Of a DNA stretch of 64,000 nucleotides, positions 1 through 60,029 are shown in pieces. Made by a program: the position numbers and the translations under genes. How positions within the stretch are numbered: the stretch's first letter is position 1; each line of letters starts with the position of its first letter. Under the pieces are notes generated by a model. That model was not told where the DNA came from. It saw only the letters and a program-made list of their open reading frames with translations, and did not search any database. The stretch lies in IMG/VR virus record IMGVR_UViG_3300009285_002455; one strand, 5' to 3'. The stretch is from a virus.

Positions 1-14
1 GTACAGAAAGCCAA

Positions 15-3000
15 ATGGGTGCTTATATCAGTAAGCATGGTAAAGGCGCGTTAGATTTAGATGTGGGTATATCTAAATTACAGCCAGGTGCTTATGGTAA
101 AAAAGAAGAAGCTAGATACTCGTCTAGTATGGCAAAGGCAGTAGCTACCGCATCTAATTTGGAAGATGAGCTTAATCAGTTATATGAGGTATCTGGTTCT
201 GGTGCTTACGGTGAATTGGTAAAGACTTCTGCCGATAGATTAAAAAATTCACAGAAAGACGTGCAAGCTGTAACTGCAGCTATTGCTAATTACGAACCTC
301 TGGATATTAAATCAATACAAGATAGTATTGGTAAGCTTACTGAATTAACCACGGGTGACTTAGCCACAATGTCTCCAATACATACGCAAGTATTTAAAGA
401 TAGATCCTCAGCTAAAGATTTAATGCGTATGCGTGATGTTGTAGACTATTATACTACACTAGCGGGGCTGCCAGTAGTAGAGCCGTCAGTGCTACAAGAA
501 ATAGAGCTACTAGGTAAAAGCGAACTTAGTAAGATGGCTGAAACTAAATTTAAAGATCAAGGCTTAACTCCCGAAGAACTACAAACCAAAGTAGATGCAT
601 ATGTAGACGTATTTTCAGAAAAAATGAAGGCCTTATATTCACTAGATAGAGCTTTAAAAGTATTTAAAACTTCTAGTGCCTCTGGTATGGATGTGGCTAC
701 TATGTTACCCCCTGTCTCCTCAGGTAAAGTTAGGGGAACAACATATCGTTCCACCGCAGGTATAGAGGCGGCTAAAGTATCTTCTCCTATAATGGAAGCC
801 GGTATTTACGGGTCTGCAGGAGGGCCCCCGCCCCCGGCTACCCCTGGTATAACAACACCGGGTGCTGGTGTTCCAGGGGGACCATTTACTTTTACTGGCG
901 GTGCTTTAAATGTTCATCTACAAAGCATTGCTGCTGGTATAGGTTTATTTGTAGGAGACACCCCACAAGCTAAAACTCAGACAACTACTGAGCCTGCTAT
1001 CGATGTAGAACAGCTTAAAAAATGGTCTGCCCAAATAACAGGTGGCCACAATGAGCTTAGCGGTGCAACATATGCAACAATATATAGAGCCAGTGCTTTA
1101 GCCGGCGGCGGTTCCTATAAGAGTGGGTTTAAAAAAGAAGACTTCTCTGAAAAAGAATTAAATAGTCGTCAGATAGCTGCCATAGTGTCAGCAATGCGTG
1201 GAGAAAGTGACAACATTCCTAATGACTTCTTAGAAGCCTCTGCTCTTGTTGGTCAAGCCATACATGCTAAAATACAAAAAGATATAATATCTATGGACCC
1301 CACAGCTGCCATAGAACAATTTGTGGCTTTAACCACAAAGTCTGGCCCTATAACCGGGCATATAGATGTTGTAATGAAAGATGAAACTACTGGTGAAAAA
1401 TATCCTATGGATATAAAGACAGTAGGTGAGGGGGTTAAAAAAGCTATTGGAGAAGCCATACAAACTTCCGGTACATCTGATTTCCCAGAAGTTTACGCCA
1501 AACTCATTGAGAAAGGGGACAAACCCAGTCTAGCGGCCGCATATAAATTACTGGATGTGGCATCACAGTTAAATGTTTATATGACAGCCATTGGTGCAAC
1601 TAAAGGCGAGGCTAAGTATTATAGTAGCACGGGTAAGGGTGAAGATACCCCTGAAGTTGTGAAATTTAAACAAGACCCAGCCTTATTAGCTAAAGATGTG
1701 GATGCCGTAGCTAAAGCTAGAAGGTTTGCTGGTAAATTTAGAACCACAGGTAGTTTAGAGGAACAAACGGAGGCCGCAAAGAAGGCTAGTCCTTTAAATA
1801 TAAGTGCTTCTGATTTAAAGAGAATGTTAGATGAATCTTCAAAACATTTTGAATCTGTTAAAACTGCTGGCGGCGGTAGACAAAGGGCTGCTTCTTACAG
1901 ACCGATGACACCTAAAGAGAGTGAAGAGAAAATTAAGGGTTTTAAACTTGACGAAACCGATTCAATTAGTGATATAGACAAATTATATAGCCCTAAAATA
2001 GCCGCTGGTAAGGATGTATGGGCCGATTTAGAGAACTTCACCACATTCCATACAGCCGCCAAAGAATTCCAACGGCAAGTTCGTAACATCAACTATGAAG
2101 AAGAGCTTAATAGTCTCGAAAAAGTAAGTAAAGATTTATCCGACATAATTAGAGGCACAGGTAAAACTGGCCCAGATATGGATAGATTTAGAAAAGCAAC
2201 AGATAAATTTAAACAGCTAGCCACTGATCAAGGTGGACCTGAAGGTGAACGTAGAGCAGGAGCGCAATTAAATAAAGCTTGGAAATTGTATAGAATGGCG
2301 GAAGGAGATTACTACTTATCTCAAGCCAAGGAGGCAAAAAGGGCCTACGAAGCGGCTAGCTCCTCAAAAGATTTTGAGGCGGAAACCGCAAGTTATGGTA
2401 AGGCACAATCCGCTATATCAAGAATGCGAAAGTTTGTTAGTAGGGTAGCTGGTTCTAGAACAGACATTTACACAGAAGATAAAAAATTTGTAATGCCGGA
2501 AATGGCACGTAGACTAAATGTTTATCAAACACCAGGTGAGTTGGCTACTAAGGCTACAACACCATTAGGTGATGATAAACAACTACAATCAATGTTTGAA
2601 AATATAGTAAGTGATTTACAAAAAGACAGTGTGATGACCCCTGCTGTTGAAAAAGCACGTACAGCTGTATCTACAATTACTGGTTCCAATGTTAAAAGAG
2701 AAATGATAGACATGATGCAAAATGCCGAGATGCTAACTAGGATGGGCTCTGATGTTATGCATGCTTGGGATTTTGATCTTTTGGCTGAAAAATTAAGTAG
2801 GCTCCGCGCTTCTCTTGAACGTTACATGAAGTATAATCTAACGGACGATTTTGGAGCAGCTCAAAAGAAGAATTTAGAGACTGTCATAAAGTATTTAAAA
2901 TCCGTAGAGAACTCATACACCATGATTAACCAGTCTGCCAATAAAGACTGGGGTGAGGCAGGCACAGTGCCAGTTCCAAAATGGTTAGCGCCGAAAGAGC

Positions 3001-6000
3001 AACTGGCTATGCACACAAGTAATGTAGAAAAAGTAAAAGAGTATTTTGAGAAGCCTCAAGAATCTGGTGGTGCACGTGTAGGTGAGGTTAGATCTTATCC
3101 TATCAAAGTTCTGGATCAGACTGGGCAGGTTGTTCGTAATGTTGTGGTGGACTTTGCTAAGTATGGTAAATCACTAAGTGACATAACAATAAAAGAAAGA
3201 GATTTAGCCTCCGCTATGCAAGGATCTAATAGCGGATTTAGAGGTGCAATAGGGCGTGCTGTTAAATGGGGTGCTGCTTCTACCGTAGTGTACGGAGGTT
3301 TTGCGCAACTCAAACAAGCTATTAGTACCTTAGCTGAAATAGAGTATAGTTTAGCCACACTTAAAATGATGTTAAATCCTCTGTCTTCTGATATAAATGG
3401 TTTATCAGCGGCCGCGGTTACCTTCGCCAAACAATATGGTGTTGGTATAACAGATGTATTACAATCTATGAATGTTTTTGCACAGCAAGGTTTAACACAA
3501 GCAGAAATAATAGATAGAACTAAGGTATCTACCTTAGCTGCTAATGTTACTACATTAAAAGCATCAGAAGCTACTGAAGCTTTAACATCAGCCATGAAAA
3601 TTTACCAAGAAGAAGGTAATAGTGCTATGCGCTTTTTAGATGCTTGGAGTGAGGTTGAAGCCAAGAGCGCTATTACTGCTGGTGACTTAGCCAATGCTAT
3701 TCAAAAGTCCGCCTCGGCAGCCAAAATTGCTGGTGTTACTTTTGATCAATTAAATGGTATTGTTGCCGCTATCGGTTCAACTACAAGACAATCAGGTAAA
3801 GAAGTAGGTACTTCTCTTAGATTTATTTTACGTAGACTTTCTGCCGAAAAAGGGCCAGAGCAGCTGGGTAAATTAGGTATTCCTGTCATGGAATCTACTG
3901 GACAGTTAAGATCTGGTTTTAGTGTTTTAGATGATCTAAGCAAAAAATGGAAAGACCTTAGTAACGCCCAAAAATTGGCTACCTCCCAAGCACTTGGTGG
4001 TACCAGACAATATAACTCTCTCATAGCTTTAATGGATAACTGGGATCAAGCTTTACGTGCCACCAAAGAGAGTATGAATTCCAAAGGCTCCGCAGAAAGA
4101 CGTAATGCTGAATTAATGGGTACTTATAGAAAACAGCTCGAACAAACCAAAGTTGCTTTAGTAGAACTACAGATGTCTATCGGTAAAGTAGCTTTGCCGG
4201 CATTTAAAATAGGTTTAAGTGGAGTTAAAACATTTTTAGAAACACTGTCTGCTATACCTGATCCTATCAAAGCGGCCGGCGCTGCTTTTGTGGCCTTACT
4301 GACCTATATGACTAAGGGACAGCAACTAGCCGAATCCTTAGGTGACATGCTTGCTGGAGGTAAGGACTTTCTAGGTATATCTGGGGCCGGAGAACAATTT
4401 ACTAAAGAGTTAGCTAAAACTAAATATGAATTATTTGGTTTAGGCGGCGGTAAATTAGCCACTGCCGGTCTTAAAACATTAGGTAAATTTACTACTACGG
4501 ATGCTAGTGGCGGAAAGACTGACGTAACCAGAGGGACTAAATTATCAGATTTTCATTCCTCTTTTGGCAGGTTGTCCTTTAAACTACAAGAAGTAGGTAA
4601 AGTATTTAATAGTTTTGTTGCTGATAGTGTTTCTACCACAGGTAAAGGAATAGCCTCATTCGGGGCTGCCGGAAAAACAGTAGGGACTAAACTTAGTAGT
4701 ACCGCTGGTATAGGGGAGACTATTGAAACTATTAGAAAACGTAATAGTATGACCAAAGAAGACATAGAAAAAACAGTTAAAGAGCTGGGTATACATCAAG
4801 CACTAAAGAAATTAGTTTCTGGTGGTTTGGCCATGGGCGCCGAAGTAGCTGGTATGGGTTCCTATTTAGGAGGTATGGCTGTAAAAGGTTTTGGTGATTC
4901 ACTCGGTGATATAGGCAAAAAGTTAACTGAAAATTTAGCTACGGACGATACTTCCTTTATAGCCGCGGTTGCCCCATTACTAACCACAATAGCAGCATTA
5001 GTACCGGCAATAAAAGTACTAGGGGATCAATATGGTAGGATGACTCAATCTGCACAAGATTACGCAAATGCTATGTATAGTATGCGTAGTATTCAAGAAG
5101 ATAATCTTACTAATATTAAAAATATGGCGGCTTCCTATGATGTTTTACAAAGCAAAATAGAGGATTTAAATAAATTAAATGATCCCGCCACCAAAGAACG
5201 TAGAAAATCTTTAAACACTTATGAAGCTCCTATAATTACATTAGGTAGAGCACAAGAAGATGTAATAAGTTTAGCAAATCAATTAGCAGAATCTAATAGT
5301 AACCTGGTGTTAGGTTATGATAAAGTAGGCAATGCGGTGCTTAAAGCCAGCACTAATTTTGACGAGTATTTTAAAGTACTGGATAAATCCAGAACTAAAC
5401 AACTGGCGGAATCGGAAGTAGACGTGGCTTCCAAATTTATAGAGGATTTAACCAAAACAGGTGGGTCTGAAAACACTAAAAAAATGATTAAAGATATAGC
5501 GAGTGAGGTGCCTATTATAGGAGAAATGCTTGCTAAGGGTATTAAAGTGGCCCCCGCCAAAGCTATTGCTGAAGTAACCGCACAGTTAAACAATTTGCTA
5601 TCAATAAAAGCAAAATCGCCTATGTCTTCTGCTGTGGATAAAGATATTAAAAAATATCAAGAGACATTAAAGGCGCTTAGAAATGATTACGCGGCTACTT
5701 ATAAGGAATTTAGTAATGTATTAGGCAACATTAATACTAAGGGATTAGATCCAAATGAGATTGCTAAAATATTTGCTGACCCCAGATTAAAAGAAGGGTA
5801 TGATGTTATACTTAACATGGAACCCAGACTAAATATAGCCGGCCTTAAAGGTAAAATTAATTGGCAGGATGTTTTAGGGCAAACTGTTATGCAGCGTGCC
5901 CTGCCCTCTGCTAAATCATTAGATTTTACAAAAGAATTAACTAAGGGTAAATTAGAGTCCGCAGGTCTTTTTGAACGCCAAGGTAAAGTGCTTAATAACG

Positions 6001-9000
6001 ATATAGTACTATTTATGGATGACGTGGCTGCAAAGTATAATATGGCGGGCAAACAAGCAATAGTTAAACTCAAAGAAACCTCGGATGGTGTATTTGAGTG
6101 GGTTGCACAATACTTTAATACAAAAACACTAAAAGTGGAAGAGCGTGCTTTTGATAAAGACATGCAGCAATTAGTTGAAAACATCTTTCCTGCCAATCAT
6201 ATACAAGATGAGATCACAGACAAAATAGAGATACTTAATGAATTTGTAGCCGGCGCCGGCGCGGGTATTAGGGCCATATCTGCAAAAGATTTCAAAAAGG
6301 AATTTGATTTAGGGGAGCGCTTTTTTAGTGACATAGCAACAACCACTCTGCTACAATCTGGTAAAGGGTTTACTCCTACCGCTTCTACAGGCAAAGGTTT
6401 TGGTGAATCTCCATTCCAAAAATCATGGAAAAAAGATTTTGAAGAGTATTACGCTAAACCTATGATTAAATTTAGAAGTTACATGGAGGACTTAGATAAA
6501 TTAAAAGTAGAAGGTTTGGATGAAGGCAGTGTTACCATAGCTAATGACTTATATAAAGAGTTAGAAAACCTAACTACTATATTAAAAAATAATCAAGTGG
6601 TAATGCAATATAGAGCTGTATTGGCCGATTTAACTAAAACATTTGAATCTGGCAAAAGAGCAATTGAAGAAAACATAGCTGTTGAACGTAGCCGTCAAGA
6701 AGTATTTAAAGGCACCACAGGTTATTTAAAAGGTATATCTGAGGGATTAGACACTTTTGATACGGGCGGGCCTAAGTATAAAGACCTGACTGTTCAACAA
6801 CGTACTTTAATAGGCTCAGAGGATTACAGAAACTTAGCCGCTCAACTAAAAGAATTAGATATACAAAAACAAGGTGCGTCAGAGGGCATGTACTCCTCCG
6901 ATAAAGCTCTTGTGGCACTTGATAGCATAGCTGCTGTATCAAAAGGCTTTGGTTCTGTGCTAACTAAGGACGAAATGCAAAACTTTACTGAAACTGTTGC
7001 TAGAACAGGTGACACAGGGTACGCTGAATTAAAAATAGAAACCTCTAGGGTAGCTACTAATACTGCGGATACTGTTACTAAGCTTGAAGACATTTTAATG
7101 GCTTTAGGTAGTCCAGGGGAACTTGATAAACAGTTAGAAAAATATATGTCTGCTAGTTCACCACAAGATTTACTAACTGGACTAGAGCGTGTAGCTGAAA
7201 TGCGCGATAGAGCGTCAGCCACCGGCAATTCCGATATGGTGATAGAAGCCAATAAAGTTCTAGATGTTATGACTAAAAATTTAACATCTCAATTAGGGGT
7301 AGATAGAACACTTAAAGAAATAGGTAGCCAGAATGTTTTTGGTGCTAAAAACTACACAGCAACAGAAGCTTCTCAACGAATGTTTTCTGGTCTAGATTTC
7401 CGTGATTTTGTAACACAAATGAAGGATGTCGTACCAGAAGAAAGTAAGTGGTTTGGTTTAAAAACTGTTCCAAACAAACCAACGTTCACTGCAGATGTGG
7501 AAGCCATAAATAAATTACAAACAGCAAATCAACAAACACAGTTTATTGATGATAAAACTGTAATGAAAGCCACTGCCGCAGCCAGTGTTGCTTCCGCTTT
7601 TCAAAAAGCTGGCGAAAACGCAACAGTTAAGAAATTAGATGAACAGCTTCAAGTATTAAGGGCACAACTCGCGGCAGAAGAAGCCAAGCCCGCTGTTAAT
7701 CAAAATAAAGGGTTAATAGAAGACCTAAAAACACAAGAAAAAACACTTACTACATCCAGAGAAGATACCGCAGCAAAAGCTACTTTATATGGCGCTGTTA
7801 CTACTATGACTGCGTCAAAAACAGCAATTATGGAATTTGCTAAAAGTCTTGGCTTTGCGGACGACACTATAAAGAAACTAGGTGCAGGTACCGTAGCCAC
7901 TTATGCTGCTTTATTAGTTTTTAGTAAACTATTGGGAACAGATCTTTCAGAGGCCACTAAAAATTATGGTAAAGTGTTAAAAGATGTAGCCACTGGTGTA
8001 GCAAACACTGGTGAGGCACCCTCTTTATCACAGGCCATAAAACTTAAACGGGCTGAAAAAAACTTTTATGAAGACTATGAAAAAAATAAAACACAGTACG
8101 GTTTCGCTGATGGCGGCAGAGTGTTTGGTGAAGGTACTCCTACTTCTGATAGTATTAATGCAAAATTAAGTAAAGACGAGTATGTACTAGATGCTGCAAC
8201 TGCTAGACGCGCTGGTTATGCCAGATTGGATAAATTCAGTAAAACACATAATCCAGAAGATTTAACAGGTTTTGCTACTGGTGGTGCCGTTAAAAACAGT
8301 TTGATAGAAAGCAAAGACGAACTTAAAAACAAAGCCGATTTATTACGTAAAGTTAATGATATACTTAAAGATTACCCTGAGTTATCTGATGTACTTAAAG
8401 GGTCCGAGGAAATGGCTTTGGATGTATTAAAGGAAAAATATCCTGAGGTACATAAAGCTGTAACTACTTTGTCTAAAATTAAAGTAGGCAAGGGTGAAGA
8501 GGCCACTTTAAATTTACCAGATGATTTAAAAAAATTATTAGATGCTGTTAATTTTAAAATGGCTACTGGCGGTCCAATAGCGGGCGAAGGTACTGGTACA
8601 TCAGACGATATATTAGCTAGGGTGAGTAACGGTGAATATATAATCAAGGCCGACTCTGCCAAACATTTGGGTCAAAGTAAGCTAGACTACATTAATGAAT
8701 ATGGCAAATTACCAACTTTCGCCACAGGCGGTGCTGTTGCTGGCCCAATAACAGACCCAGACATTAATAGACCTGCACAAGTACTAGCCACAGCAGCTGC
8801 GGCTACTATGGCAGGTTATCTAGCCGAAAGTAATGAAAAACTTACTGAGATAGCAACAGCTTCTAAAAAATCTGCCGCTGAGTCCACCCTTATAGCGGAT
8901 TTGATACAGAAAAACACATCATCAGCACAAAAAATATTTAATACCCTTAATGAGCAGGCTATTAAAAATGCTACAACCGATAAAATACTTCAAGGAACAG

Positions 9001-12000
9001 AAGTAAAATCCAAAGTATTGGATGTTGATGCTGAAAAGAAAAAAGTGGAACAAGCCATAAAAGATATGAAAGAAGTCTATAAACAGCAGGCGCAAGTCAT
9101 AAACAAACAGGCCGCTGATATGCAAGAACAGATGCTTAAACTTGAAATGGCTGAAGAATTAGAAAAGGAATTAAATGATATGGCTGCCGCTATATCCAAT
9201 GTAGAAATAACAGCAAATGCTAAAAATAGGTTTAGTAAATTAGTGGAAGAGTCCATGACTTACGGTGTAAAAAGTTTTGTTAGGCCATCTTTTTGGTCCA
9301 GTAATTTCGCTGTACCTCAACCTGGTGGTTTATTAGGAGGTAAGTATAATCCACCCCAAGTTGACTTAGGTGTTAGAAGTACACGGGATATGACAACAGA
9401 ACAATATCTGCTATTTAAAGATAAGGAGCTGGTATCAAAAGCTAAAAATCTTTCAGAGGTAGGTAAAAACTTTTTTACTAATCTAGGAAGACTTTTCACT
9501 GATCTAGATTTTTTTGCTAAGGACCTTAATTTTGAATCAGTGGCCACCTTTATAAATAGTTTGGCTTCTATACAAGATCCTAGAAAAGGTGTTAAACTTG
9601 AAAAAGTATTTACAATAAATAAATACCAAAAGGCAGAAACTTCTTTTAAAGCATTAGAAAAGGCCCAAAGTAAAACAGATCTTATGCAGTCTAAGCTTAC
9701 TGAACTCTATATTGAAAAACAAGAATTAGACGCTTTGGATAAAACAGTAGGGTTAAGTAGTAAAGAAAAGAAGCGGTTTAAAAATGTGGATATTTTAATA
9801 GACGAGTACGAACATGCTATAAAAGGACAAGTTTCTAAAATAAAGAATATAAAAATAGATTTAGAGCCTGTAATAATTGAAGGGACCTTTAAGAAGGCTA
9901 GATCTGAACGGGCTAATACCGAATTAGTTGAAGATTTTTCTAGTATAACTAGATCAATTTCTCAATCTAAAACGTCAATGACTGCTGCCATGAATCCTGA
10001 ATTATCTGGTTTTAGAGGTGATTTGCAATTTAAACGTAAAGACGCCGAATTAAGTGATCAAGAATACTTTTTTAAATCATCACAAGGAACTACAAAAAAC
10101 ACGATAGATCAACTAAAATCGGCACAAGCTCTAACAGAAAATGTAAGTAAAAAAATAGCAGATAGAGAGCAATTAATAACAGATATCAGATTAAAGCTGT
10201 TAGATGCCGGCGATAAAGAGACCAATCAAACTAAGGCATATAAAGATGAAATATTAAAATTAAGTGATGAGACGTCTGATTTAACAGAAGACTTCGAAAC
10301 CCTTAAAAATAGTATGGAATCCTTAGGCAGTATAACGCAAACCGTGTTTGATACAGGTAAAAGTCTACGCGTATTTAATGAAAGTTTTAAATCTTTAAGC
10401 GTACAGGGTTTTAGTGCCGGATTAGAAGGTACTAGAAATCTTAAATTGGCCATGGATTCCCTGGTTGGTGCTAGCGGTCCTTTTGCTAAAAGAATGGTCA
10501 CACCTACACAGCAAATAGATGCTTTAATGGGTGGTGGTATATCTTTAAGCAAATTTGCTGATGAATTTGAAATAAGAACAGCTGATTTATATACACAACT
10601 ATTTTCTGGCAATCTTAAAGGTAATGATCTTCAGAAAGTTATTGACCAAATAACCCATATGCCACAGGAAAAGGCTAGGGTACGTGAAGAACAAGATTTG
10701 GTTAAGCAATTTCAAGGTTTAGACACTATGGTTAATGCCATAAATTCCATGGAAGATACTTTAATTGAAAGAATATCATTTGGTAATGAAGATGCCGGCA
10801 CAAAAGCTTACTATGCTGGGTCTTTAAAACAATTAGAGGAACTTAAAAATTCTCAAGCGACCTTCATAAAATCAGAAACTACTATTGGAGCAGTAAAAGA
10901 AAAAGCCAAAGCCCAGTATGGGGAAGGAACCATAGAATACCAGAGATACATGTCTCAATTTGGTGGTATGGCTGAAAGCACCAGAGCGGTGGCAATAACA
11001 CCAGAAGTAAAAGAGGGCTTTGCAAGAATACAACATGACCTTGAAAAAACTCTAATGAACTCTGATCCTGTGGTTAAAGAATTGATTAACATACAAAAGA
11101 TCTTAGAAACATTAGCTGAAAAACTAGGCGTTCCCTCCTCGGAGTTAAGACAGCTATTTAAAACTCCTGGAGAAACAGATAAACTACTTCCAACCCTAGA
11201 AACAGCAAAATTTCAATCGCCTGTACAAAAATATGTAAGTGAAGTGGAACAAAATTCTATGGCTGGTTTAGTGGCCGCTAACAAAGCCTTGGATGCTCTT
11301 TCTGTGCCTACGGGGAATTTGGTTATAGAATTAGGTAGAGTTATACCAAAGTTTGTAGAATATAACAATGCATTAGGCAATGCTATTGTTAATTTAACCA
11401 GCAGGGCAGTAGGTGCTGCCATTAAGGATATTAATATAGTTCCTCCTGGTGTAGCGCAAGAAAAAGCTGTTAAAGAAAAAGCTACATTTATTGGTACAAA
11501 AATGGCTGAGCAACAAGGTTTTGATGTTAACGATCCAATAATAAAAGCAAGGATAAACCAATTTGCAGCTGGACAGGCCATGTTTATTAGTGAACAAGAA
11601 CGTCAAAATGCGCGTAATAAACCATCTGTTTTTACAGATACCCCAACTAAGGATTTTGTTTCAAAAGGTACTTTAAGTTTAGGTGCATCTGCTCTGGCTG
11701 CTATGGGACCTGATATAGCCCTGCTTGCTGAATTTTTTATGGGGCCCCAGGCTGCAACACTTTTGACTGCGGCCCCATTAGCAGTTGGTGCTGGGGTAGA
11801 AGGGTACAATTTTGCTGCCCCAAAAGCAGACTACCTCATGTCTTTAAAAGAAACCAATGACCTACTAACTAAGGCAGAGAAGGATGCTGCATCACGTGGT
11901 GATTTATTTGAAAAACCCTCGCTGAATTTGCCTGATTTGGAGAACCTACACTTAGCGGATGACGCTTATTTTAAAGCACAAATAGAGGCACTTTATAATA

Positions 12001-14276
12001 ATACAACTCAACTACAAGAGTTAAATAAAGCTTTAAAGGATAAACCGACAGAGACTACTGCTGTCGATGCTGCTACACCTCTTGTTAAGGCTCGCGGGGG
12101 TTACATTACAGGTCCTGGTGGTCCAAGAGAGGATAAAGTTCCGGCTATGCTTAGTCCAGGAGAATACGTAATACGCGCCCATGCGGCCCAGAAACTTGGT
12201 TATGATACCCTGGACTATATAAATAAAAAAGGTATTATGCCAGGCCTGGCTGACGGCGGCAACGTGTTTTCTGCGTCCGGCGCACAGGACATCCTTACCA
12301 AGCGCAGAAAACAACTAGAAGCCATCATGAAGGAAAATAACCTGGCTGACGGCGGCAACGTGTTTTCTGCGTCCGGCGCACAGGACATCCTTACCAAGCG
12401 CAGAAAACAACTAGAAGCCATCATGAAGGAAAATAACCTGGCTGACGGCGGCAACGTGTTTTCTGCGTCCGGCGCACAGGACATCCTTACCAAGCGCAGA
12501 AAACAACTAGAAGCCATCATGAAGGAAAATAACCTGGCTGACGGCGGTAGTATACCCATGTTTACAGAGAAGGAGGTATTAACTCTGGCTAAAGCAAGGG
12601 CCTCAGTTTTAAATGAAGAGGAACAATTAAGAAAAGGAGTTAAAACTGAAGACTTATTAGGAGCTACTACTTCAAGAGTGTCTTCTGAAGAACAACAACT
12701 TATGACTCAAATGGCAGAAAGAAAAACTACTTTTGGTGAATCTTACAATGCAGGAAGAGTGGGCGCCGCCGAAGAGTATTTTACTGCCACGCGAGATATA
12801 AAGGAAAACGTTAGACGTTTAGCAGCAAATGATGTGGGCACCGAAAAACAAACAAATACTATGACTTTTACACCTAACTACTTATATAAAGGTGCTAAGA
12901 TGTCAAGTATGACCGCAGCAGCAGGCCCAGCTTATCCAGAAGTAGAGCAACTTAGAAATTATCTTGAAGATCCAACTATCATGCGTAATGCCTTATCCCA
13001 TGGTATTGATAAAGAGACAGGTAAGCCTAATGCTGGCTATCTTCCGGAAGAATATGTATGGCAAGCTAGACAGTCATTAAATAAATTTGATAAATTAGTT
13101 ACATCTGGTAATACATTACAAAACAGTCCGGCGCTCCGGGCGTTAAGACACGTACTTGCTGATGTAGAGGATCGTATAGCCTTAACCTCCAATATAGGAA
13201 GGGTTATAGGACTTAGGGATACTGGTAAATTAGATGCAATGTTGCCTATGGGCGGTGCTAAAATTAGTGAAACTGATGAGGGCACATTTTGGAATTATGC
13301 CGGTAATTTGGCAGCCAAACAAAACATGCCAAAAGAGTTGGAGGGTTTATTAACAACAAATGAATTTAGAGCTCTGGCCGTTAAGAGTATTAGTGAAGGT
13401 GACAGCGCACGTGTTAAAACTATTATTGAGGACTATTTAAAGACACGTAATTTAGATGAAAATAGTAATCTTTTAAGCGACACTTTTAAAGGTAATAAGC
13501 AACTTGAAGGTGGAAGATTCATGCCTATTATGCATGACGGCGGCGTAACGAGATCTACTGGTCCTCATTATTTAGAGAAAGGTGAGGTAGTATTGCCAAG
13601 ACGCTTTGCTGATGGTGGCCTTGTTAATAGTGAACTTACTACCAATACAATTACTAATGCCCAACAAAAAAGTATTACACTTACTTGGGATGAAAGTAAA
13701 AAATTACAGGTAGAAGATAGAGTATTACGTGTAGAGGACAAAGAGTTAAAGTTGGCTGATATAGCTCCCTTAAAAGTAGAGGATAAAGTATTTGATGTTA
13801 AATTGGACGATAACGGTATTACTGATAAACTAACTTCTGTAATAAGTAGTATACCAGATAAGATATCTTTGGATTCTTCAAACGTTAAACTAGATACATC
13901 TAATCTAGAAACTATGTTTAAGAACCTGGCGGACTCCATAAATAATACTAAATCCGTAGGTGCTGATAGTACAATTTTAGATACCGCATTAGAAAGTATA
14001 GCTTTTGTTAAAGAGCAAACTGATGAACAAATACACATAATAGATTCTAAGTTAACTAATTTACAGGAATCTTTTGGAAAGGATGTACAGGCTGAGATAA
14101 ATGTACGAATTGCGGAAGTTAAAAAAGATATTTTGAATAATAATTCAAAATTAATTGACTCTTATATAAATAGGCAAAGGACCGACATTAGTAAATTAAA
14201 GTTTGAACTAACATCTATTGATGGGCAATTAAAACGTTTAATGACACTAGTGTATGCTAATAGGAATATAGGCTAA
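15..14276 (+). CDS. giant tail tape-measure protein (probably 5'-truncated by window edge)
   Basis: 4753-aa Ala/Lys/Glu-rich helical ORF. TP901-type tape-measure core at ~3243-4300 (GAIGRAVKWG...AVTFAKQYG...ANVTTLKASEATEALTSAM...FDQLNGIVAAIGSTTRQSGKEVGTSLRFI...LGGTRQYNSLIALMDNW). Several FAxGG/SxxEYV modules typical of TMP C-termini. The frame is open upstream to base 3 (ACA GAA AGC CAA ATG), so the true start may lie outside the window. Confidence 0.88.
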   Translation: MGAYISKHGKGALDLDVGISKLQPGAYGKKEEARYSSSMAKAVATASNLEDELNQLYEVSGSGAYGELVKTSADRLKNSQKDVQAVTAAIANYEPLDIKSIQDSIGKLTELTTGDLATMSPIHTQVFKDRSSAKDLMRMRDVVDYYTTLAGLPVVEPSVLQEIELLGKSELSKMAETKFKDQGLTPEELQTKVDAYVDVFSEKMKALYSLDRALKVFKTSSASGMDVATMLPPVSSGKVRGTTYRSTAGIEAAKVSSPIMEAGIYGSAGGPPPPATPGITTPGAGVPGGPFTFTGGALNVHLQSIAAGIGLFVGDTPQAKTQTTTEPAIDVEQLKKWSAQITGGHNELSGATYATIYRASALAGGGSYKSGFKKEDFSEKELNSRQIAAIVSAMRGESDNIPNDFLEASALVGQAIHAKIQKDIISMDPTAAIEQFVALTTKSGPITGHIDVVMKDETTGEKYPMDIKTVGEGVKKAIGEAIQTSGTSDFPEVYAKLIEKGDKPSLAAAYKLLDVASQLNVYMTAIGATKGEAKYYSSTGKGEDTPEVVKFKQDPALLAKDVDAVAKARRFAGKFRTTGSLEEQTEAAKKASPLNISASDLKRMLDESSKHFESVKTAGGGRQRAASYRPMTPKESEEKIKGFKLDETDSISDIDKLYSPKIAAGKDVWADLENFTTFHTAAKEFQRQVRNINYEEELNSLEKVSKDLSDIIRGTGKTGPDMDRFRKATDKFKQLATDQGGPEGERRAGAQLNKAWKLYRMAEGDYYLSQAKEAKRAYEAASSSKDFEAETASYGKAQSAISRMRKFVSRVAGSRTDIYTEDKKFVMPEMARRLNVYQTPGELATKATTPLGDDKQLQSMFENIVSDLQKDSVMTPAVEKARTAVSTITGSNVKREMIDMMQNAEMLTRMGSDVMHAWDFDLLAEKLSRLRASLERYMKYNLTDDFGAAQKKNLETVIKYLKSVENSYTMINQSANKDWGEAGTVPVPKWLAPKEQLAMHTSNVEKVKEYFEKPQESGGARVGEVRSYPIKVLDQTGQVVRNVVVDFAKYGKSLSDITIKERDLASAMQGSNSGFRGAIGRAVKWGAASTVVYGGFAQLKQAISTLAEIEYSLATLKMMLNPLSSDINGLSAAAVTFAKQYGVGITDVLQSMNVFAQQGLTQAEIIDRTKVSTLAANVTTLKASEATEALTSAMKIYQEEGNSAMRFLDAWSEVEAKSAITAGDLANAIQKSASAAKIAGVTFDQLNGIVAAIGSTTRQSGKEVGTSLRFILRRLSAEKGPEQLGKLGIPVMESTGQLRSGFSVLDDLSKKWKDLSNAQKLATSQALGGTRQYNSLIALMDNWDQALRATKESMNSKGSAERRNAELMGTYRKQLEQTKVALVELQMSIGKVALPAFKIGLSGVKTFLETLSAIPDPIKAAGAAFVALLTYMTKGQQLAESLGDMLAGGKDFLGISGAGEQFTKELAKTKYELFGLGGGKLATAGLKTLGKFTTTDASGGKTDVTRGTKLSDFHSSFGRLSFKLQEVGKVFNSFVADSVSTTGKGIASFGAAGKTVGTKLSSTAGIGETIETIRKRNSMTKEDIEKTVKELGIHQALKKLVSGGLAMGAEVAGMGSYLGGMAVKGFGDSLGDIGKKLTENLATDDTSFIAAVAPLLTTIAALVPAIKVLGDQYGRMTQSAQDYANAMYSMRSIQEDNLTNIKNMAASYDVLQSKIEDLNKLNDPATKERRKSLNTYEAPIITLGRAQEDVISLANQLAESNSNLVLGYDKVGNAVLKASTNFDEYFKVLDKSRTKQLAESEVDVASKFIEDLTKTGGSENTKKMIKDIASEVPIIGEMLAKGIKVAPAKAIAEVTAQLNNLLSIKAKSPMSSAVDKDIKKYQETLKALRNDYAATYKEFSNVLGNINTKGLDPNEIAKIFADPRLKEGYDVILNMEPRLNIAGLKGKINWQDVLGQTVMQRALPSAKSLDFTKELTKGKLESAGLFERQGKVLNNDIVLFMDDVAAKYNMAGKQAIVKLKETSDGVFEWVAQYFNTKTLKVEERAFDKDMQQLVENIFPANHIQDEITDKIEILNEFVAGAGAGIRAISAKDFKKEFDLGERFFSDIATTTLLQSGKGFTPTASTGKGFGESPFQKSWKKDFEEYYAKPMIKFRSYMEDLDKLKVEGLDEGSVTIANDLYKELENLTTILKNNQVVMQYRAVLADLTKTFESGKRAIEENIAVERSRQEVFKGTTGYLKGISEGLDTFDTGGPKYKDLTVQQRTLIGSEDYRNLAAQLKELDIQKQGASEGMYSSDKALVALDSIAAVSKGFGSVLTKDEMQNFTETVARTGDTGYAELKIETSRVATNTADTVTKLEDILMALGSPGELDKQLEKYMSASSPQDLLTGLERVAEMRDRASATGNSDMVIEANKVLDVMTKNLTSQLGVDRTLKEIGSQNVFGAKNYTATEASQRMFSGLDFRDFVTQMKDVVPEESKWFGLKTVPNKPTFTADVEAINKLQTANQQTQFIDDKTVMKATAAASVASAFQKAGENATVKKLDEQLQVLRAQLAAEEAKPAVNQNKGLIEDLKTQEKTLTTSREDTAAKATLYGAVTTMTASKTAIMEFAKSLGFADDTIKKLGAGTVATYAALLVFSKLLGTDLSEATKNYGKVLKDVATGVANTGEAPSLSQAIKLKRAEKNFYEDYEKNKTQYGFADGGRVFGEGTPTSDSINAKLSKDEYVLDAATARRAGYARLDKFSKTHNPEDLTGFATGGAVKNSLIESKDELKNKADLLRKVNDILKDYPELSDVLKGSEEMALDVLKEKYPEVHKAVTTLSKIKVGKGEEATLNLPDDLKKLLDAVNFKMATGGPIAGEGTGTSDDILARVSNGEYIIKADSAKHLGQSKLDYINEYGKLPTFATGGAVAGPITDPDINRPAQVLATAAAATMAGYLAESNEKLTEIATASKKSAAESTLIADLIQKNTSSAQKIFNTLNEQAIKNATTDKILQGTEVKSKVLDVDAEKKKVEQAIKDMKEVYKQQAQVINKQAADMQEQMLKLEMAEELEKELNDMAAAISNVEITANAKNRFSKLVEESMTYGVKSFVRPSFWSSNFAVPQPGGLLGGKYNPPQVDLGVRSTRDMTTEQYLLFKDKELVSKAKNLSEVGKNFFTNLGRLFTDLDFFAKDLNFESVATFINSLASIQDPRKGVKLEKVFTINKYQKAETSFKALEKAQSKTDLMQSKLTELYIEKQELDALDKTVGLSSKEKKRFKNVDILIDEYEHAIKGQVSKIKNIKIDLEPVIIEGTFKKARSERANTELVEDFSSITRSISQSKTSMTAAMNPELSGFRGDLQFKRKDAELSDQEYFFKSSQGTTKNTIDQLKSAQALTENVSKKIADREQLITDIRLKLLDAGDKETNQTKAYKDEILKLSDETSDLTEDFETLKNSMESLGSITQTVFDTGKSLRVFNESFKSLSVQGFSAGLEGTRNLKLAMDSLVGASGPFAKRMVTPTQQIDALMGGGISLSKFADEFEIRTADLYTQLFSGNLKGNDLQKVIDQITHMPQEKARVREEQDLVKQFQGLDTMVNAINSMEDTLIERISFGNEDAGTKAYYAGSLKQLEELKNSQATFIKSETTIGAVKEKAKAQYGEGTIEYQRYMSQFGGMAESTRAVAITPEVKEGFARIQHDLEKTLMNSDPVVKELINIQKILETLAEKLGVPSSELRQLFKTPGETDKLLPTLETAKFQSPVQKYVSEVEQNSMAGLVAANKALDALSVPTGNLVIELGRVIPKFVEYNNALGNAIVNLTSRAVGAAIKDINIVPPGVAQEKAVKEKATFIGTKMAEQQGFDVNDPIIKARINQFAAGQAMFISEQERQNARNKPSVFTDTPTKDFVSKGTLSLGASALAAMGPDIALLAEFFMGPQAATLLTAAPLAVGAGVEGYNFAAPKADYLMSLKETNDLLTKAEKDAASRGDLFEKPSLNLPDLENLHLADDAYFKAQIEALYNNTTQLQELNKALKDKPTETTAVDAATPLVKARGGYITGPGGPREDKVPAMLSPGEYVIRAHAAQKLGYDTLDYINKKGIMPGLADGGNVFSASGAQDILTKRRKQLEAIMKENNLADGGNVFSASGAQDILTKRRKQLEAIMKENNLADGGNVFSASGAQDILTKRRKQLEAIMKENNLADGGSIPMFTEKEVLTLAKARASVLNEEEQLRKGVKTEDLLGATTSRVSSEEQQLMTQMAERKTTFGESYNAGRVGAAEEYFTATRDIKENVRRLAANDVGTEKQTNTMTFTPNYLYKGAKMSSMTAAAGPAYPEVEQLRNYLEDPTIMRNALSHGIDKETGKPNAGYLPEEYVWQARQSLNKFDKLVTSGNTLQNSPALRALRHVLADVEDRIALTSNIGRVIGLRDTGKLDAMLPMGGAKISETDEGTFWNYAGNLAAKQNMPKELEGLLTTNEFRALAVKSISEGDSARVKTIIEDYLKTRNLDENSNLLSDTFKGNKQLEGGRFMPIMHDGGVTRSTGPHYLEKGEVVLPRRFADGGLVNSELTTNTITNAQQKSITLTWDESKKLQVEDRVLRVEDKELKLADIAPLKVEDKVFDVKLDDNGITDKLTSVISSIPDKISLDSSNVKLDTSNLETMFKNLADSINNTKSVGADSTILDTALESIAFVKEQTDEQIHIIDSKLTNLQESFGKDVQAEINVRIAEVKKDILNNNSKLIDSYINRQRTDISKLKFELTSIDGQLKRLMTLVYANRNIG
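1080..1720 (+). other. PD-(D/E)XK (RecB/Cas4-like) nuclease domain inside the tape-measure protein
   Basis: Ordered motifs IYRASAL (1080), GQAIH (1251), IEQF (E at 1314), GHID (D at 1365), DIKT (D 1410, K 1416) and QLNVY (1566). The order matches the stand-alone nuclease at 58869 (ISATRI, GTAVH, LETPF, GAID, DYKT, QLSMY). Confidence 0.75.
12245..12547 (+). repeat. perfect in-frame tandem repeat, 3 x 96 bp + 15 bp
   Basis: The unit starting cctggctgacggcggcaacgtg recurs at 12245, 12341 and 12437, with a partial copy at 12533. It encodes LADGGNVFSASGAQDILTKRRKQLEAIMKENN. 50 of 96 bases are G+C. Confidence 0.97.
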
Positions 14277-14280
14277 ATAC

Positions 14281-16464
14281 ATGGCACTTACTGAATATAG
14301 AATACCTAATGATGTACATCAAAAGGCCGATGGTACTTGGACCAATTACCATATAATTAATGGTTTGCCAGTAAATTATGCTGATTTAGATCAAGAGCTT
14401 TCTGATTTAATGTCACAACAAAGTACTGGCCCCTTAGTTAGTACTATCCTTAATACTTTTGGTATACCATCAGATTTATCTGCTTTGGGTATTGATCCTA
14501 GTGGGGAACTCCTTGGTGTGGACATCAAAGATGTTGATACAATGTCTGCCATAAAAATGTCATTAATAGAACCCTTTGCTAAGGGATTATATAACAACCC
14601 ATTAGAGATTGTAGTTACTCCTGAAGGTAATGTTAGTATAATAGAAATAGGTTCTATGTCTGGTGGTATAACTGATGTATACACAAGTGTAGTATCCACC
14701 ACATTTGATGTTCCTGAGATAAGTGTTAAAGTCACAGGTAAAAAACCCAGATCAAAAAGAGAAGTACGCGACTGGGTAAATTTACTCTATAATGTACAAG
14801 AAGTTAATTCCGAAGAAGGTATGTCAATAGAAGAGTCGGAATACAGCCTAGCTCAGGCTTTGATTTGGGACACTAGTCAAATATCTAGTGATTGCCCGCT
14901 AGTCACATACAAAAGACACGCAGTGGTAACATTTAAAGATCCTAATTTAAATGCTTGGGCAGTTAATGATGGTGTTGAAAGTATATATGAAGTACAATCT
15001 GTTTGGGAAAAAGTAGTCGGTTGGTTATGGTATTTAGACCCAGGACCAAAAGTTGATAGACTTACAAAAGTATCGGTCAAACAACAATCCTCAGTGCCAT
15101 ACCTACTTGCAGGTCCCAAAGGAATTATTAGTGCTAAGGCTGTACCAATAAATAATAATTCGGTTAATATCGGCGTATTAAAAAAACGTGATGTGTGGAT
15201 TGGACTTCAACCACAATCTACACCAGAAAATGGATGCTATGAAGGATTAAGCTACGAAATAAGTTGCGATGGTACAGAAACTATACCTATAAGCTTACCA
15301 AATAGTTTAAGATACACGACTGTTAGGAATGTGCAGACAGATAATTTAATTAGAGTTTCTAAAATATTTGTAGTCGGGCAAGAGCTGTCCATGTGCAAAT
15401 CATTCCCTAAAAATGACGAAGTTGTGGCTAATTTTTTAAAATCCCAAAGTAATGAAGAAAAATTAGAGTTACTAAAACAAACTGAGGTTTTTGTAATAGC
15501 TAATGATTTAACTCCAAAAGCTTACGTATTAGAAGAAGGAGTAGATTATGGTATTGGCTATAATATCGACACAGGTCAATTATGTATTCAGGTAATCAAT
15601 AATGCACACGCCTATGACTGGGGTACGTATGGAACAGATGTTTCCTTTAAGCTGCACCCTAACTGTATTTTAGCTAATGAACCAAACTCTGATCCTGGTG
15701 TAGGTAAAGGCACTTTAATACCAAAAGAAGGTGCTGGTTATTTAGTACAACAACTTTGGGCACAGATTGATTTAAATATACCTTCTGTGGAGATATATGA
15801 TCCTCACGGCCGCGCACTGGAAATAGCACAAGATTTACGTTTAGAAATAGCACCAATTGTTGTTATAGATGATCCAGCCCCAATAGCCATTAATGGTGAG
15901 CTAGTAGATCAAGCATCTGCCATAGTAGATTCAGACCCAACTACTGTACAGGCATTACAAGACAGTGATTATGAAATAAAAATGCGAGCATTAAATGGGA
16001 CACAAATATTTGAAACAAATATGGCTACTTTATCAGAACAAGAAACAATTAATTTTTCTTATAGATTAAAGGAAATACTAAATAGAGATAAGACATTAGA
16101 GATAAGTTATGTTTGTGGTCCTAACTGTAACCCACAATTAGGTGGTACTGGGCTACAAGGGGGTGTAATTAATAATATAACCTATTCCTATACAGATATG
16201 GGTTCTTACACAATATCCGTAACAGAAGGCCCTTATATACCCAACACCGGTTTGATATCTGGGGTAACCGGTGGACAATACACAAAACAAGTTGAGTCTA
16301 TTACAGAAAATGGTATAGTAATACAAGATGAAGGTAACTGCCTTAGATATAAAGTTTTAGTAGCTGGGATAGGCATTGTAACGGCTTACAGCGCTATATC
16401 AGATATCATAAGAGTTGGTGATGAAGTAGTAGTAAAAATATATAATGTTCCTATGGAATCATAA
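14281..16464 (+). CDS. putative tail hub/baseplate structural protein
   Basis: 727-aa ORF directly after the tape measure. Beta-rich, with a C-terminal OB-fold-like segment (RYKVLV...IIRVGDEVVVKIY). Assignment rests mainly on position. Confidence 0.45.
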   Translation: MALTEYRIPNDVHQKADGTWTNYHIINGLPVNYADLDQELSDLMSQQSTGPLVSTILNTFGIPSDLSALGIDPSGELLGVDIKDVDTMSAIKMSLIEPFAKGLYNNPLEIVVTPEGNVSIIEIGSMSGGITDVYTSVVSTTFDVPEISVKVTGKKPRSKREVRDWVNLLYNVQEVNSEEGMSIEESEYSLAQALIWDTSQISSDCPLVTYKRHAVVTFKDPNLNAWAVNDGVESIYEVQSVWEKVVGWLWYLDPGPKVDRLTKVSVKQQSSVPYLLAGPKGIISAKAVPINNNSVNIGVLKKRDVWIGLQPQSTPENGCYEGLSYEISCDGTETIPISLPNSLRYTTVRNVQTDNLIRVSKIFVVGQELSMCKSFPKNDEVVANFLKSQSNEEKLELLKQTEVFVIANDLTPKAYVLEEGVDYGIGYNIDTGQLCIQVINNAHAYDWGTYGTDVSFKLHPNCILANEPNSDPGVGKGTLIPKEGAGYLVQQLWAQIDLNIPSVEIYDPHGRALEIAQDLRLEIAPIVVIDDPAPIAINGELVDQASAIVDSDPTTVQALQDSDYEIKMRALNGTQIFETNMATLSEQETINFSYRLKEILNRDKTLEISYVCGPNCNPQLGGTGLQGGVINNITYSYTDMGSYTISVTEGPYIPNTGLISGVTGGQYTKQVESITENGIVIQDEGNCLRYKVLVAGIGIVTAYSAISDIIRVGDEVVVKIYNVPMES

Positions 16465-16475
16465 GGAGAATATAA

Positions 16476-17069
16476 ATGGCCATAGATTTAATTCACATTA
16501 GGGCTAAAATAGTTTGTAAAGAGACTGAACTAGAAATAGTAACTCCTTATATACAATCTTTTAGTATTAATAAAAGCAGAGGCACAACGTCTAATTTTAA
16601 TGCCTCCTTAAAAGTATTAGGTGAAAATCTAAGTGCGGTAACTGGAGAAGTAGCCATATATGCTGGAACACAGGATGATATGCCATTAATTTTTACAGGA
16701 TTCATAAAAAAAGTTGTTCCTTCCCCAGTATGGGATGACCCAGCATATTTAATGTTGAATATAAGTGGAACAGATGTTTTATATAGATTAGAGAATAAAC
16801 GATTTACTAGAAGACAGACCTATTCTGACTCTGCTTGGGCCACTATTACTTCTGTACGTGATGGGCTTAAAAGCAGTAGATTAAAATATGCGCCACAAGA
16901 ACCAAGACTAATTCCTACAAAAGAAGGTTTAATAGACGAAAACACACAAACACTAGCAACCAAGGATAATCCAGCAAAACTATCTACTGATAGAGATATA
17001 CCTAGTGTTAATATGGAGGCGGTCATTGGTTATACTGATTCGTCGGTTGTGGGGCCTGAGGCGGAATAA
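16476..17069 (+). CDS. putative baseplate hub (gpD/gp27-like N-terminal) protein
   Basis: AAGGAG RBS. Pattern IQSFSINKSRG...FNASLKV...VAIYAG...IFTGFIKKV...ISGTDVLYRL resembles phage late-control D/hub proteins. Confidence 0.45.
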   Translation: MAIDLIHIRAKIVCKETELEIVTPYIQSFSINKSRGTTSNFNASLKVLGENLSAVTGEVAIYAGTQDDMPLIFTGFIKKVVPSPVWDDPAYLMLNISGTDVLYRLENKRFTRRQTYSDSAWATITSVRDGLKSSRLKYAPQEPRLIPTKEGLIDENTQTLATKDNPAKLSTDRDIPSVNMEAVIGYTDSSVVGPEAE

Positions 17070-18099: not shown

Positions 18100-18114
18100 T
18101 GAGAGGTATTAATC

Positions 18115-58333: not shown

Positions 58334-58869
58334 ATATACTAAGCTTGGATGTTTCCGCCGCCTCCACTGGTTGGTGTGTATTGCAGGACACAGGTATATA
58401 TTTTGGGGTCATAAAAACAAACGCTAAATTGCAAAATACAGAAAGATTGTTGACATTTAAAACAGAATTGTGTAAAATATTAAAAACGTATAAACCTACA
58501 AACATAGTTATTGAAGACATATTTGTAGGACTTAATGCTTCTACTATAAAAGTGCTTGCTGAATTTGCCGGTGTTGCTAAACTTACATGTAAAGAGGTGG
58601 TTAATATAGTACCATACATAATAAGTACCAATACGGTAAAAGCCTACTATAAAGCTAAAAAGAAAGAAATGATTTTTAATTTTATGCTGGATATTTTAGA
58701 ACAGCATTGGGAATATAAACACTATAATGACATAGTAGATGCCTTAGCACAAGTCATATGCTATACTGATATAGTACTTAATCTTAAAGCATTTAGATTT
58801 ACGGAAGAGTATGGTTATTTTTATAAAATTGAAGATCCTCTTCACAATCATTTAATTCGGGGTGTATAA
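58330..58869 (+). CDS. ruvC: RuvC-like Holliday junction resolvase
   Basis: [25 protein letters not shown] and DIVDALA catalytic pattern. Confidence 0.82.
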
Positions 58870-60029
58870 TGGTAAATAATGAGGGCATTAAAATAAGTGC
58901 TACACGCATAAGTACTTTTTTGCAATGTAAGCAGAAATACTGGTTTAACTATTATGATAAATTACCTAAAATAGATAATCCGGTATTTAAATTAGGTACA
59001 GCTGTTCACATTGCCTTGGAGTTGGCTGGAAATATCTGGCGGGAAAAAGAGAAGTTCACTAAAAAAGATAAAGAAACTATTATTAATAAGTTTAAAGAAG
59101 TCTCTGTAAAAGAAGGAATTGATGATTTTTCCGTACACCAAACAGGTATAGAATTAGTAACTAATAGAATAAATGATTTTATACATGAAGGGCACAAAAT
59201 AATAAGCTTAGAAACTCCCTTTGGTTATAAAGGTGGTGTAGATGTAATCACCAAAGAAGGTGTGCCGTTGTTGGGCGCTATTGATAAAGTATTACAGGTA
59301 GATGAAGACACCATTCTAATTGTGGACTATAAAACATCTAAAACTGCACCTACACCGGATCAACTAAAAACAGACAAACAGTTGTCTATGTATGATTTGG
59401 TAGCCAGTATATTGTGGCCTGGAAAGCGTATTATAGTTAGCCTTGACTTGTTAAAACATGAGATGTTATATTCTTATCGTACACCAGAAGAACGGGCTGC
59501 TTTTTCTGAATATCTTAGATTAGTGTACGATTCCATGCTTTCCTTGAAAGAGCAGGATGTAAAAGCCACAATAAACACATTTTGTCCTTGGTGTGATTTT
59601 AGAGAATATTGTAATGCGTATAAAGAGGCATATACAAATTCGAACGGCAAATTTCAAGAAGCGTATCGTTTAGATAACAGTGCTTTGGTCGATGAGTGGC
59701 AACAAGTTAAAAAGATGAAAAAAATATATGAAATGCGCGAGAAAGAACTATCTTTACTTCTTATGGATCGTATAAAAACTACTGGTATAAATGTACAAGT
59801 AGACGACAAAGAAGTTTATGTTAGACAAAATAGTAGAGCAACTTACGATATTAGCGCGGTTAAACAAATAGTACCACAAGAGTATCTATTGAATATGGTA
59901 TCTTTAAATAAATCAGATATTGAAAAATATATGGATAAGAACCCCGCAGCCAAGGCTAAAATAGTAGATAGCATGACTGTGAATTTTACAACACCTTTTT
60001 TAGATGTACGTAAAATAAAAAATAAATGA
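58869..60029 (+). CDS. PD-(D/E)XK exonuclease, RecB/AddB/Cas4-like
   Basis: ISATRISTFLQC, GTAVH, GAIDKV, IVDYKT, QLSMY. The 1+3 Cys staple (QC...CPWCDFREYC) is typical of Fe-S-containing AddB/Cas4 nucleases. Confidence 0.85.
   Translation: MVNNEGIKISATRISTFLQCKQKYWFNYYDKLPKIDNPVFKLGTAVHIALELAGNIWREKEKFTKKDKETIINKFKEVSVKEGIDDFSVHQTGIELVTNRINDFIHEGHKIISLETPFGYKGGVDVITKEGVPLLGAIDKVLQVDEDTILIVDYKTSKTAPTPDQLKTDKQLSMYDLVASILWPGKRIIVSLDLLKHEMLYSYRTPEERAAFSEYLRLVYDSMLSLKEQDVKATINTFCPWCDFREYCNAYKEAYTNSNGKFQEAYRLDNSALVDEWQQVKKMKKIYEMREKELSLLLMDRIKTTGINVQVDDKEVYVRQNSRATYDISAVKQIVPQEYLLNMVSLNKSDIEKYMDKNPAAKAKIVDSMTVNFTTPFLDVRKIKNK

Follow-up and report, generated by a model that had tools for sequence, protein, structure and literature searches.

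A RecB/Cas4-like nuclease domain is embedded in the giant tape-measure protein of an uncultured groundwater phage, represented by the IMG/VR record IMGVR_UViG_3300009285_002455 (104,299 bp; completeness of about 39% according to CheckV). The stretch of 64,000 nucleotides that we analyzed, hereinafter the window, corresponds to positions 19244-83243 of this record, and the domain in question is encoded by nucleotides 987-1814 of the window. The best overall explanation of this region, which we consider probable, is that it specifies a nuclease forming part of one continuous tape-measure chain of ~7,650 amino acids (aa). The presence of such a domain within a tape measure, as proposed in a first-pass annotation of the window, is supported by the predicted fold, the conservation of the catalytic residues and a match to the Pfam model PF10145. 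The active site is supported as being of the RecB type and intact, and the nuclease is predicted to be metal-dependent and cofactor-free. Further, the same chain bears an upstream module that is very probably an RNA polymerase (RNAP), as judged from its motifs and a structural model; together with the true start of the gene, which lies far outside the window, this module changes the role that is most likely for the nuclease.

The window holds only the following portion of the gene:

Window 1..14276, + strand: the C-terminal 4,757 codons of the giant tape-measure open reading frame (ORF), with the frame open at the 5' edge of the window.

Translation had earlier been taken to begin at the ATG at nucleotide 15. 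This start has to be given up: in the full record the open frame comprises 7,660 codons, and its first start codon is a TTG at record position 10567, which is found 7 nucleotides after an AGGAGG and 8.7 kb upstream of the window. From this TTG the tape-measure protein has a length of ~7,650 aa, and the same start was used by gene callers both for P0031, the representative of the cluster to which the protein belongs, and for a relative that has 7,715 aa and is 86% identical. Nucleotides 600-3600 of the window are present in full in 18 metagenome runs of groundwater or soil, which come from nine studies; an accident of assembly is thus excluded as the source of the reading frame. The residue numbers of the motifs discussed below are counted from the ATG at nucleotide 15; the addition of 2,897 converts them to full-length numbers, such that D451 is D3348 and K468 is K3365.

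The nuclease domain and its signature motifs map to the window thus:

Window 987..1814, + strand: cysteine-free RecB/Cas4-like PD-(D/E)XK nuclease domain (window aa 325-600; full-length aa 3222-3497), as predicted from an AlphaFold2 model, Foldseek, VIA-align, PHROG 1706 and the family profile.

Window 1251..1265, + strand: helix motif GQAIH at 413, with G413 invariant and H417 conserved in at least 90% of the sequences; it pairs with GDILH of the Cas4 protein SSO0001.

Window 1314..1316, + strand: the acidic residue E434, which is invariant and located on the first strand of the core (108-117 in the model).

Window 1356..1367, + strand: GHID at 448-451, RecB motif II (GxhD), with G448 and D451 invariant.

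Window 1410..1418, + strand: DIK at 466-468, RecB motif III ((D/E)xK), with K468 invariant and D466 conserved in at least 90% of the sequences.

Window 1563..1580, + strand: SQLNVY (QLNVY at 518-522), the QhxxY helix motif, with Q518, N520 and Y522 invariant; it lies in helix 179-201 of the model.

The folded core of the domain extends roughly over window aa 337-576 (nucleotides 1023-1742) and includes a RASAL motif at 358 (nucleotides 1086-1100). All of the motifs singled out in the first-pass annotation, from RASAL through GQAIH, E434, GHID and DIK to Q518-Y522, are found exactly at the positions that it had given them.

An exhaustive phmmer search over 1.84 billion representatives recovered 28 relatives of the nuclease domain, which share 22-39% identity with it in the alignment (n = 28). 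Most of them measure 6,800-8,000 aa and have the domain near aa 2,700-3,500. Nine positions, namely G413, E434, G448, D451, K468, Q518, N520, Y522 and D561, are invariant across the 28 aligned sequences, and a further four, H417, D466, T469 and S517, are conserved in at least 90% of them. Hence, every residue that had been picked out as catalytic is either invariant or conserved at this level even among distant homologs. In the family conservation profile the domain stands out as a discrete conserved block with a stretch of low conservation on either side, and it has conserved elements specific to the family (YRASxLxGGG at its N-terminus and FDPxRxxKD..AR at its C-terminus). Two of the proteins may represent separate genes, namely P0023, of 536 aa, from a contig of 2 kb, and P0020, of 907 aa, from a contig of 5.2 kb, although these contigs are too short or odd for a firm assignment. 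On the latter (1-5201), the + strand encodes the 907-aa protein with the nuclease domain, whereas a fragment of PhageMin_Tail is found at the contig end on the - strand; an inversion, a chimera of assembly or a true split of the gene could each account for this.

Detection of more remote relationships required the family profile, as a single-sequence phmmer search of the nuclease domain against the PDB returned only noise. The profile recovered Cas4 SSO0001 (4ic1; E = 9e-6) and a second Cas4 (4r5q; E = 0.057), and in the alignment with SSO0001 the motifs GxxLH, E, GxxD and (D/E)IKT each fall opposite their counterparts. Likewise, PHROG 1706 ("CRISPR/Cas system associated", Cas4-like) shows a partial match to aa 406-472 with an E-value of 4e-9. 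Comparisons of the nuclease domain against 50,697 phage records with blastn and tblastn gave no match.

The AlphaFold2 model computed from the family alignment has a predicted local distance difference test score (pLDDT) of 92.6 and a predicted template-modeling score (pTM) of 0.90. Its strands 108-117, 120-131 and 138-146 and the helices that follow them constitute the alpha/beta core of the PD-(D/E)XK fold. Here, three successive strands bear E434, D451 and D466/K468, respectively, and the helix that comes next bears Q518/Y522. All significant PDB matches in a Foldseek search with this model are PD-(D/E)XK nucleases (SSO0001, Exo5, AdnAB, LHK-Exo, RecE, MGME1 and lambda exonuclease), with 4ic1 as the best match (E = 2e-5). 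VIA-align superimposes 178 residues of the model on 4ic1_D (Cas4 SSO0001) with a Z-score of 12.3 and a root-mean-square deviation of 3.7 Å, followed by Cas4 in the Cas4-Cas1-Cas2 complex (Z = 11.1), LHK-Exo (10.8), lambda exonuclease (10.3) and Pcal Cas4 (10.0). Structure searches of BFVD and Swiss-Prot placed the same PD-(D/E)XK nuclease families on top, and the best structural matches throughout are exonucleases. A restriction-endonuclease-like fold, on which the original proposal hinged, is thus predicted with high confidence, and its neighbors are Cas4, lambda exonuclease and nucleases of the RecB family.

Cas4 SSO0001 (4ic1) and other enzymes of the Cas4/AddB/Exo5 type provide the best structural and sequence match, with the same order of GxxxH, E, GxhD, (D/E)xK and QhxxY. 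However, Cas4, AddB and Exo5 (and the Dna2-type enzymes) have an iron-sulfur (Fe-S) cluster held by four cysteines, whereas the embedded domain has none and is neither free-standing nor CRISPR-associated. As it lacks the four cysteines and also fails the curated Pfam models, we regard it as a distinct Fe-S-free RecB-like subfamily rather than as a member of the Cas4 family. Lambda exonuclease, RecE, LHK-Exo and the YqaJ-type enzymes, which are of phage origin, show the same Fe-S-free PD-(D/E)XK exonuclease fold (Z = 9.6-10.8). Yet the enzymes of the lambda exonuclease type are soluble, cytoplasmic and paired with an annealing protein, while the present domain is embedded in a structural virion protein with no such partner adjoining it.

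The absence of the Fe-S cysteines, which had been remarked upon at the outset, extends to every cysteine in the domain and indeed to the entire protein: there are none in 7,650 aa, against a frequency of 1.43% in the other ORFs of the record, at which rate ~110 would be expected. Homologs of 7,000-8,000 aa have 0-4 cysteines and gp96 of the Thermus phage P23-45 (5,002 aa) has none. Accordingly, the Fe-S ligands are missing because the giant proteins of this family are almost free of cysteine. We infer that a cysteine-free chain fits storage in and passage through the tail in a non-native state, with subsequent refolding that needs no insertion of a cofactor.

A second nuclease encoded in the window presents the contrasting, canonical state:

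Window 58869..60029, + strand: stand-alone Cas4/AddB-type PD-(D/E)XK nuclease with four Fe-S cysteines (C20 and CX2CX5C), matching PF12705 (PDDEXK_1) with an E-value of 1.2e-25.

The order of motifs in the embedded domain does mirror that in this enzyme, as the first-pass annotation had noted, with C20 and CX2CX5C being additions of the stand-alone gene. We also considered the embedded domain as a recent duplicate of this gene and rejected that origin, since there is no significant pairwise similarity: BLASTP gives an E-value of 0.11 and hhalign a probability of 1%, with only the GTAxH helix aligned.

The tape-measure identity of the chain and the setting of the nuclease within it are defined by three further features:

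Window 804..899, + strand: Gly/Pro-rich linker between the region on the RNAP side and the nuclease (window aa 264-295), with low conservation (0.14).

Window 3411..4001, + strand: tape-measure core (PhageMin_Tail, PF10145; window aa 1133-1329), detected with an E-value of 2.6e-27 and 96.5 bits against a cut-off of 33.2.

Window 4956..5012, + strand: strongly hydrophobic, membrane-span-like segment (window aa 1648-1666), with a Kyte-Doolittle mean of 2.23 over 19 aa.

Conservation within the family is highest in the PhageMin_Tail core (0.53-0.65 identity), and the homologs have been named TP901-family tape measures by JGI. A Pfam search with the whole protein recovered PhageMin_Tail alone and no peptidase domain. 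The linker, with GGPPPPATPG at nucleotides 819-848, has a counterpart in ~13 of 21 homologs, where a Gly/Pro-rich stretch of unconserved sequence occurs 40-85 aa before the nuclease. This recurrence at the same relative position without conservation of sequence gives it the look of a flexible linker, and in conjunction with the dips in conservation on either side it presents the nuclease as a flexibly tethered module. The earlier description of a Pro/Gly linker is accordingly upheld with respect to its presence and position, but not the suggestion that cleavage at this point separates the domain, which is unsupported; moreover, P23-45 gp96 is uncleaved in virions (PMC10770324). The hydrophobic segment, which lies C-terminal to the core, is the only one in the protein with a Kyte-Doolittle mean of at least 1.6.

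Taken from its N-terminus, the protein consists of a helical region of ~1,300 aa, the two-barrel RNAP module (aa ~1300-2800), the Gly/Pro linker, the nuclease (aa 3222-3497), the TP901-type core (aa 4030-4226) and finally a long ruler with the single membrane-span-like segment. The order of RNAP, nuclease and tape-measure core is kept in ~20 giant proteins of 6,800-8,000 aa. At window 12245-12547, a perfect 96-bp unit is repeated 3.2 times; each unit specifies 32 aa, the last of which are LADGG. In P0031 there are only two copies where the present protein has three, and the copy number thus varies among close relatives. The C-terminal ruler shows recurrences of the motif GG-x(8-20)-LS-x-GEY(V/I) at window ~8114-8188, 8570-8644 and 12098-12172 (full-length aa 5597, 5749 and 6925), which may mark small repeated modules and which we take to resemble motifs of other tape measures.

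The polymerase module lies in the part of the gene that precedes the window:

Record 14464-18966, + strand: two-barrel RNAP-like module in the same ORF, as predicted from motifs and alignment of a model to beta-prime-type subunits.

The signature of the two-barrel polymerases is present here in the form of the DxDGD metal-binding loop of the beta-prime-like barrel and the basic GxKx4RxGxKG loop of the beta-like barrel. The motifs GYGxNV..TFEDQIxxSG and GRK(F/L)xTR(F/Y)G(S/T)KGV correspond to the pair of loops by which a double-psi barrel of the beta type is recognized (aa ~1390-1533), and R(Y/F)PFTGxxS(V/I)Q (aa 2376) and D(F/Y)DGDxIEIH (aa 2480) are collinear in ~20 full-length homologs. In these, GRKFTTRFGSKG at aa 1521, RYPFTG..IQ at 2376 and DFDGD at 2480 are invariant. 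Profile searches with the RNAP region touch the matching loops of RPC1, beta-prime, Rpb1 and the phage beta-like subunit 7s00_C, with E-values of only 0.2-1.7. VIA-align of a 1,200-aa AlphaFold model gives Z-scores of 9.4-10.7 over 240-279 residues at 14-18% identity to the largest subunits of multisubunit RNAPs, which fill most of its top 50 rows, and it maps model residues ~505-1125 onto the N-terminal half of beta-prime, active site included. In blastn and tblastn comparisons with the same 50,697 phage records the RNAP region found no match, and no second RNAP was found in the 104-kb record at its completeness of ~39%. In the homologs, the nuclease always follows the RNAP catalytic loop at a distance of 935-1,010 aa.

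The closest precedent for such an architecture is gp96 of P23-45 (Chaban et al. 2024, PMC10770324). This tape measure is 5,002 aa long and bears a two-barrel virion RNAP in its N-terminal part. That RNAP is present in virions within full-length, uncleaved gp96 and has been proposed to transcribe the pre-early genes at the tape-measure pore; no nuclease is mentioned for gp96 (PMC10770324). The two proteins are alike in having a DxDGD two-barrel RNAP N-terminal to the tape-measure core, in uniting enzyme and ruler in one polypeptide and in the complete absence of cysteine. They differ in that the RNAP of the present protein begins only after ~1,300 aa, that the protein is ~2,650 aa longer and that gp96 has no detectable counterpart of the nuclease: the family profile scores negative bits against gp96, and tblastn finds no match. 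Profiles comparing the two RNAP regions also give negative or near-zero bits, with only the DFDGD pentapeptide being alignable. Literature searches recovered no description of a nuclease-bearing tape measure. Thus, a tape measure carrying an RNAP is known, and what is new here is a nuclease in the same tape measure.

Tape measures leave the tail at infection, and their N-terminal part is nearest to the head-tail junction, where the end of the DNA sits. Single-chain two-barrel RNAPs, such as gp66 of phi14:2 and QDE-1, lack a sigma factor and reportedly work on single-stranded templates, and both Cas4 and lambda exonuclease resect DNA 5' to 3'. By analogy with other tape measures and with P23-45 gp96, the present protein would, as a virion component, exit the tail at infection; its N-terminal RNAP and nuclease would emerge last, in few copies, at the site of entry and beside the leading end of the genome. 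The nuclease may then act in cis, resecting the 5' strand at the leading end of the entering phage DNA, and the neighboring sigma-less RNAP would thereby be offered a single-stranded 3' template for pre-early transcription. End resection is favored because the nearest relatives of the domain are 5'-3' exonucleases and because two-barrel RNAPs reportedly use single-stranded templates. Taken by itself, resection in cis that feeds the RNAP a 3' single strand is the role that we tentatively favor, as a serious possibility that falls somewhat short of an even chance. The stronger proposal, that RNAP and nuclease form a coupled resect-and-transcribe device on the tape measure, is more doubtful, though still worth entertaining.

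Several points weigh against these readings and temper the confidence with which they are put forward. The phage is uncultured, and we infer the enzymatic activity, the delivery into the host and the role alike. A Pfam scan of the nuclease domain alone returned no PDDEXK or Cas4 family even at E-values up to 10, and the choice between an exo- and an endonuclease, along with its polarity, is drawn only from the nearest structural relatives. For the upstream module, the AlphaFold model of 1,200 aa has an intermediate confidence (pLDDT 68), and Foldseek found no significant match to it, with the RNAP rows at E-values of 0.2-0.9. The functional link of nuclease and RNAP comes down to their constant adjacency.

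An alternative with a certain precedent is that the injected nuclease is a weapon or counter-defense effector directed at the host chromosome or plasmids, the DNA of co-infecting phages or the nucleic acids of defense systems. For the polyvalent proteins of phages it has been proposed that several effector domains with enzymatic functions enter the cell along with the DNA (PMC5512222; PMC7824862), and these proteins embody the same concept of one large multi-enzyme polypeptide that accompanies the invading genome (Iyer et al. 2017, PMC5512222). However, those are delivered from the head or by conjugation and often carry processing peptidases, with no mention of tape measures (PMC5512222), whereas the present protein has no recognizable peptidase domain. 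The conservation of the catalytic residues agrees with an effector role, as does the presence of a canonical Fe-S Cas4-like gene that could serve recombination and leave the embedded nuclease to another task. Nevertheless, few copies per virion, tethered to a protein with a membrane-span-like segment, suit local action better, so that activity in cis is easier to envisage than large-scale destruction of the host DNA; the constant spacing of 935-1,010 aa between the RNAP catalytic loop and the nuclease suggests that the two functions are coupled; and no self-protection system in the form of DNA modification or an inhibitor was identified. We therefore judge a weapon to be unlikely.

Still less probable is an action during virion assembly, by which the nuclease would trim the end of the packaged DNA that enters the tail at head-tail joining. 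It would be well placed for this, given the general position of the N-terminal part of tape measures close to the head-tail junction and the DNA end. There is also an analogy in gp4 of T4, a virion-associated head-completion nuclease with the restriction-endonuclease fold that is reported to be needed for packaging (as cited in PMC7824862). Yet a function that follows ejection would better account for the unvarying association with an RNAP. Moreover, we know of no assembly nuclease that is borne on a tape measure. That the domain is a non-catalytic relic, retained solely for DNA binding or as a structural spacer, is very improbable, even though the Pfam nuclease models fail to detect it. Inactive derivatives normally lose their active-site residues, whereas those of the RecB type are here invariant or nearly so in 28 sequences that have diverged to 22-39% identity. 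Resection in cis of the entering genome end hence stays the role that we favor.

Among the genes around the giant ORF, a tail-tube-like protein of 537 aa is encoded 2.3 kb upstream of the giant gene at record 6672-8285 (feature score 0.93; TM by hit 0.74-0.88), and between the two are ORFs of 98, 252 and 340 aa. It is much longer than typical tube proteins (~300 aa in the matching clusters) and probably has an inserted or decorating domain. Among the neighboring genes PHROGs recognized only homing endonucleases, and no sheath gene was identified; the product of record 348-2567, considered as a candidate sheath, was rejected because it instead looks rich in Ig/PKD domains. The homing endonuclease genes are free-standing, of the GIY-YIG/HNH type, and lie among the structural genes at record 2575-3318 and window 20390-21289 (PHROG E-values of 3e-43 and 8e-16). 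Downstream of the giant gene, at window 14281-50027, nearly all large ORFs (727, 623, 1,022, 868, 1,792, 2,266 and 1,037 aa) are without a PHROG match. Pfam matches in this region are limited to Ig-like, F5/8 type C and Kelch domains, and the tail-tip/fiber module is essentially uncharted.

Finally, these observations bear on the general view of tape measures, which have long been seen as passive rulers, sometimes with a cell-wall hydrolase. In the present family a second enzyme, a DNA nuclease, is kept beside a polymerase in one chain of ~7,650 residues, and by analogy with the known cases the tail probably delivers two nucleic-acid enzymes together with the DNA. The nuclease-bearing family spans diverse large uncultured phages, with homologs on contigs of 210-260 kb, and adds to the phage repertoire a family of exceptionally long proteins. 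It further shows how the Cas4-type fold can dispense with its Fe-S cluster, and suggests that the near-absence of cysteine may be a general constraint on the cargo of the tail lumen, and thereby a rule for proteins that pass through the phage tail. It also offers a concrete candidate, open to test, for the way in which an injected polymerase with no sigma factor might come by its template. If resection and transcription are indeed coupled in this manner, pre-early transcription would need neither promoter melting nor a host factor, and these phages would have arrived at a new solution to the problem of the first transcript, distinct from both the hairpin promoters of N4 and the solution of P23-45.

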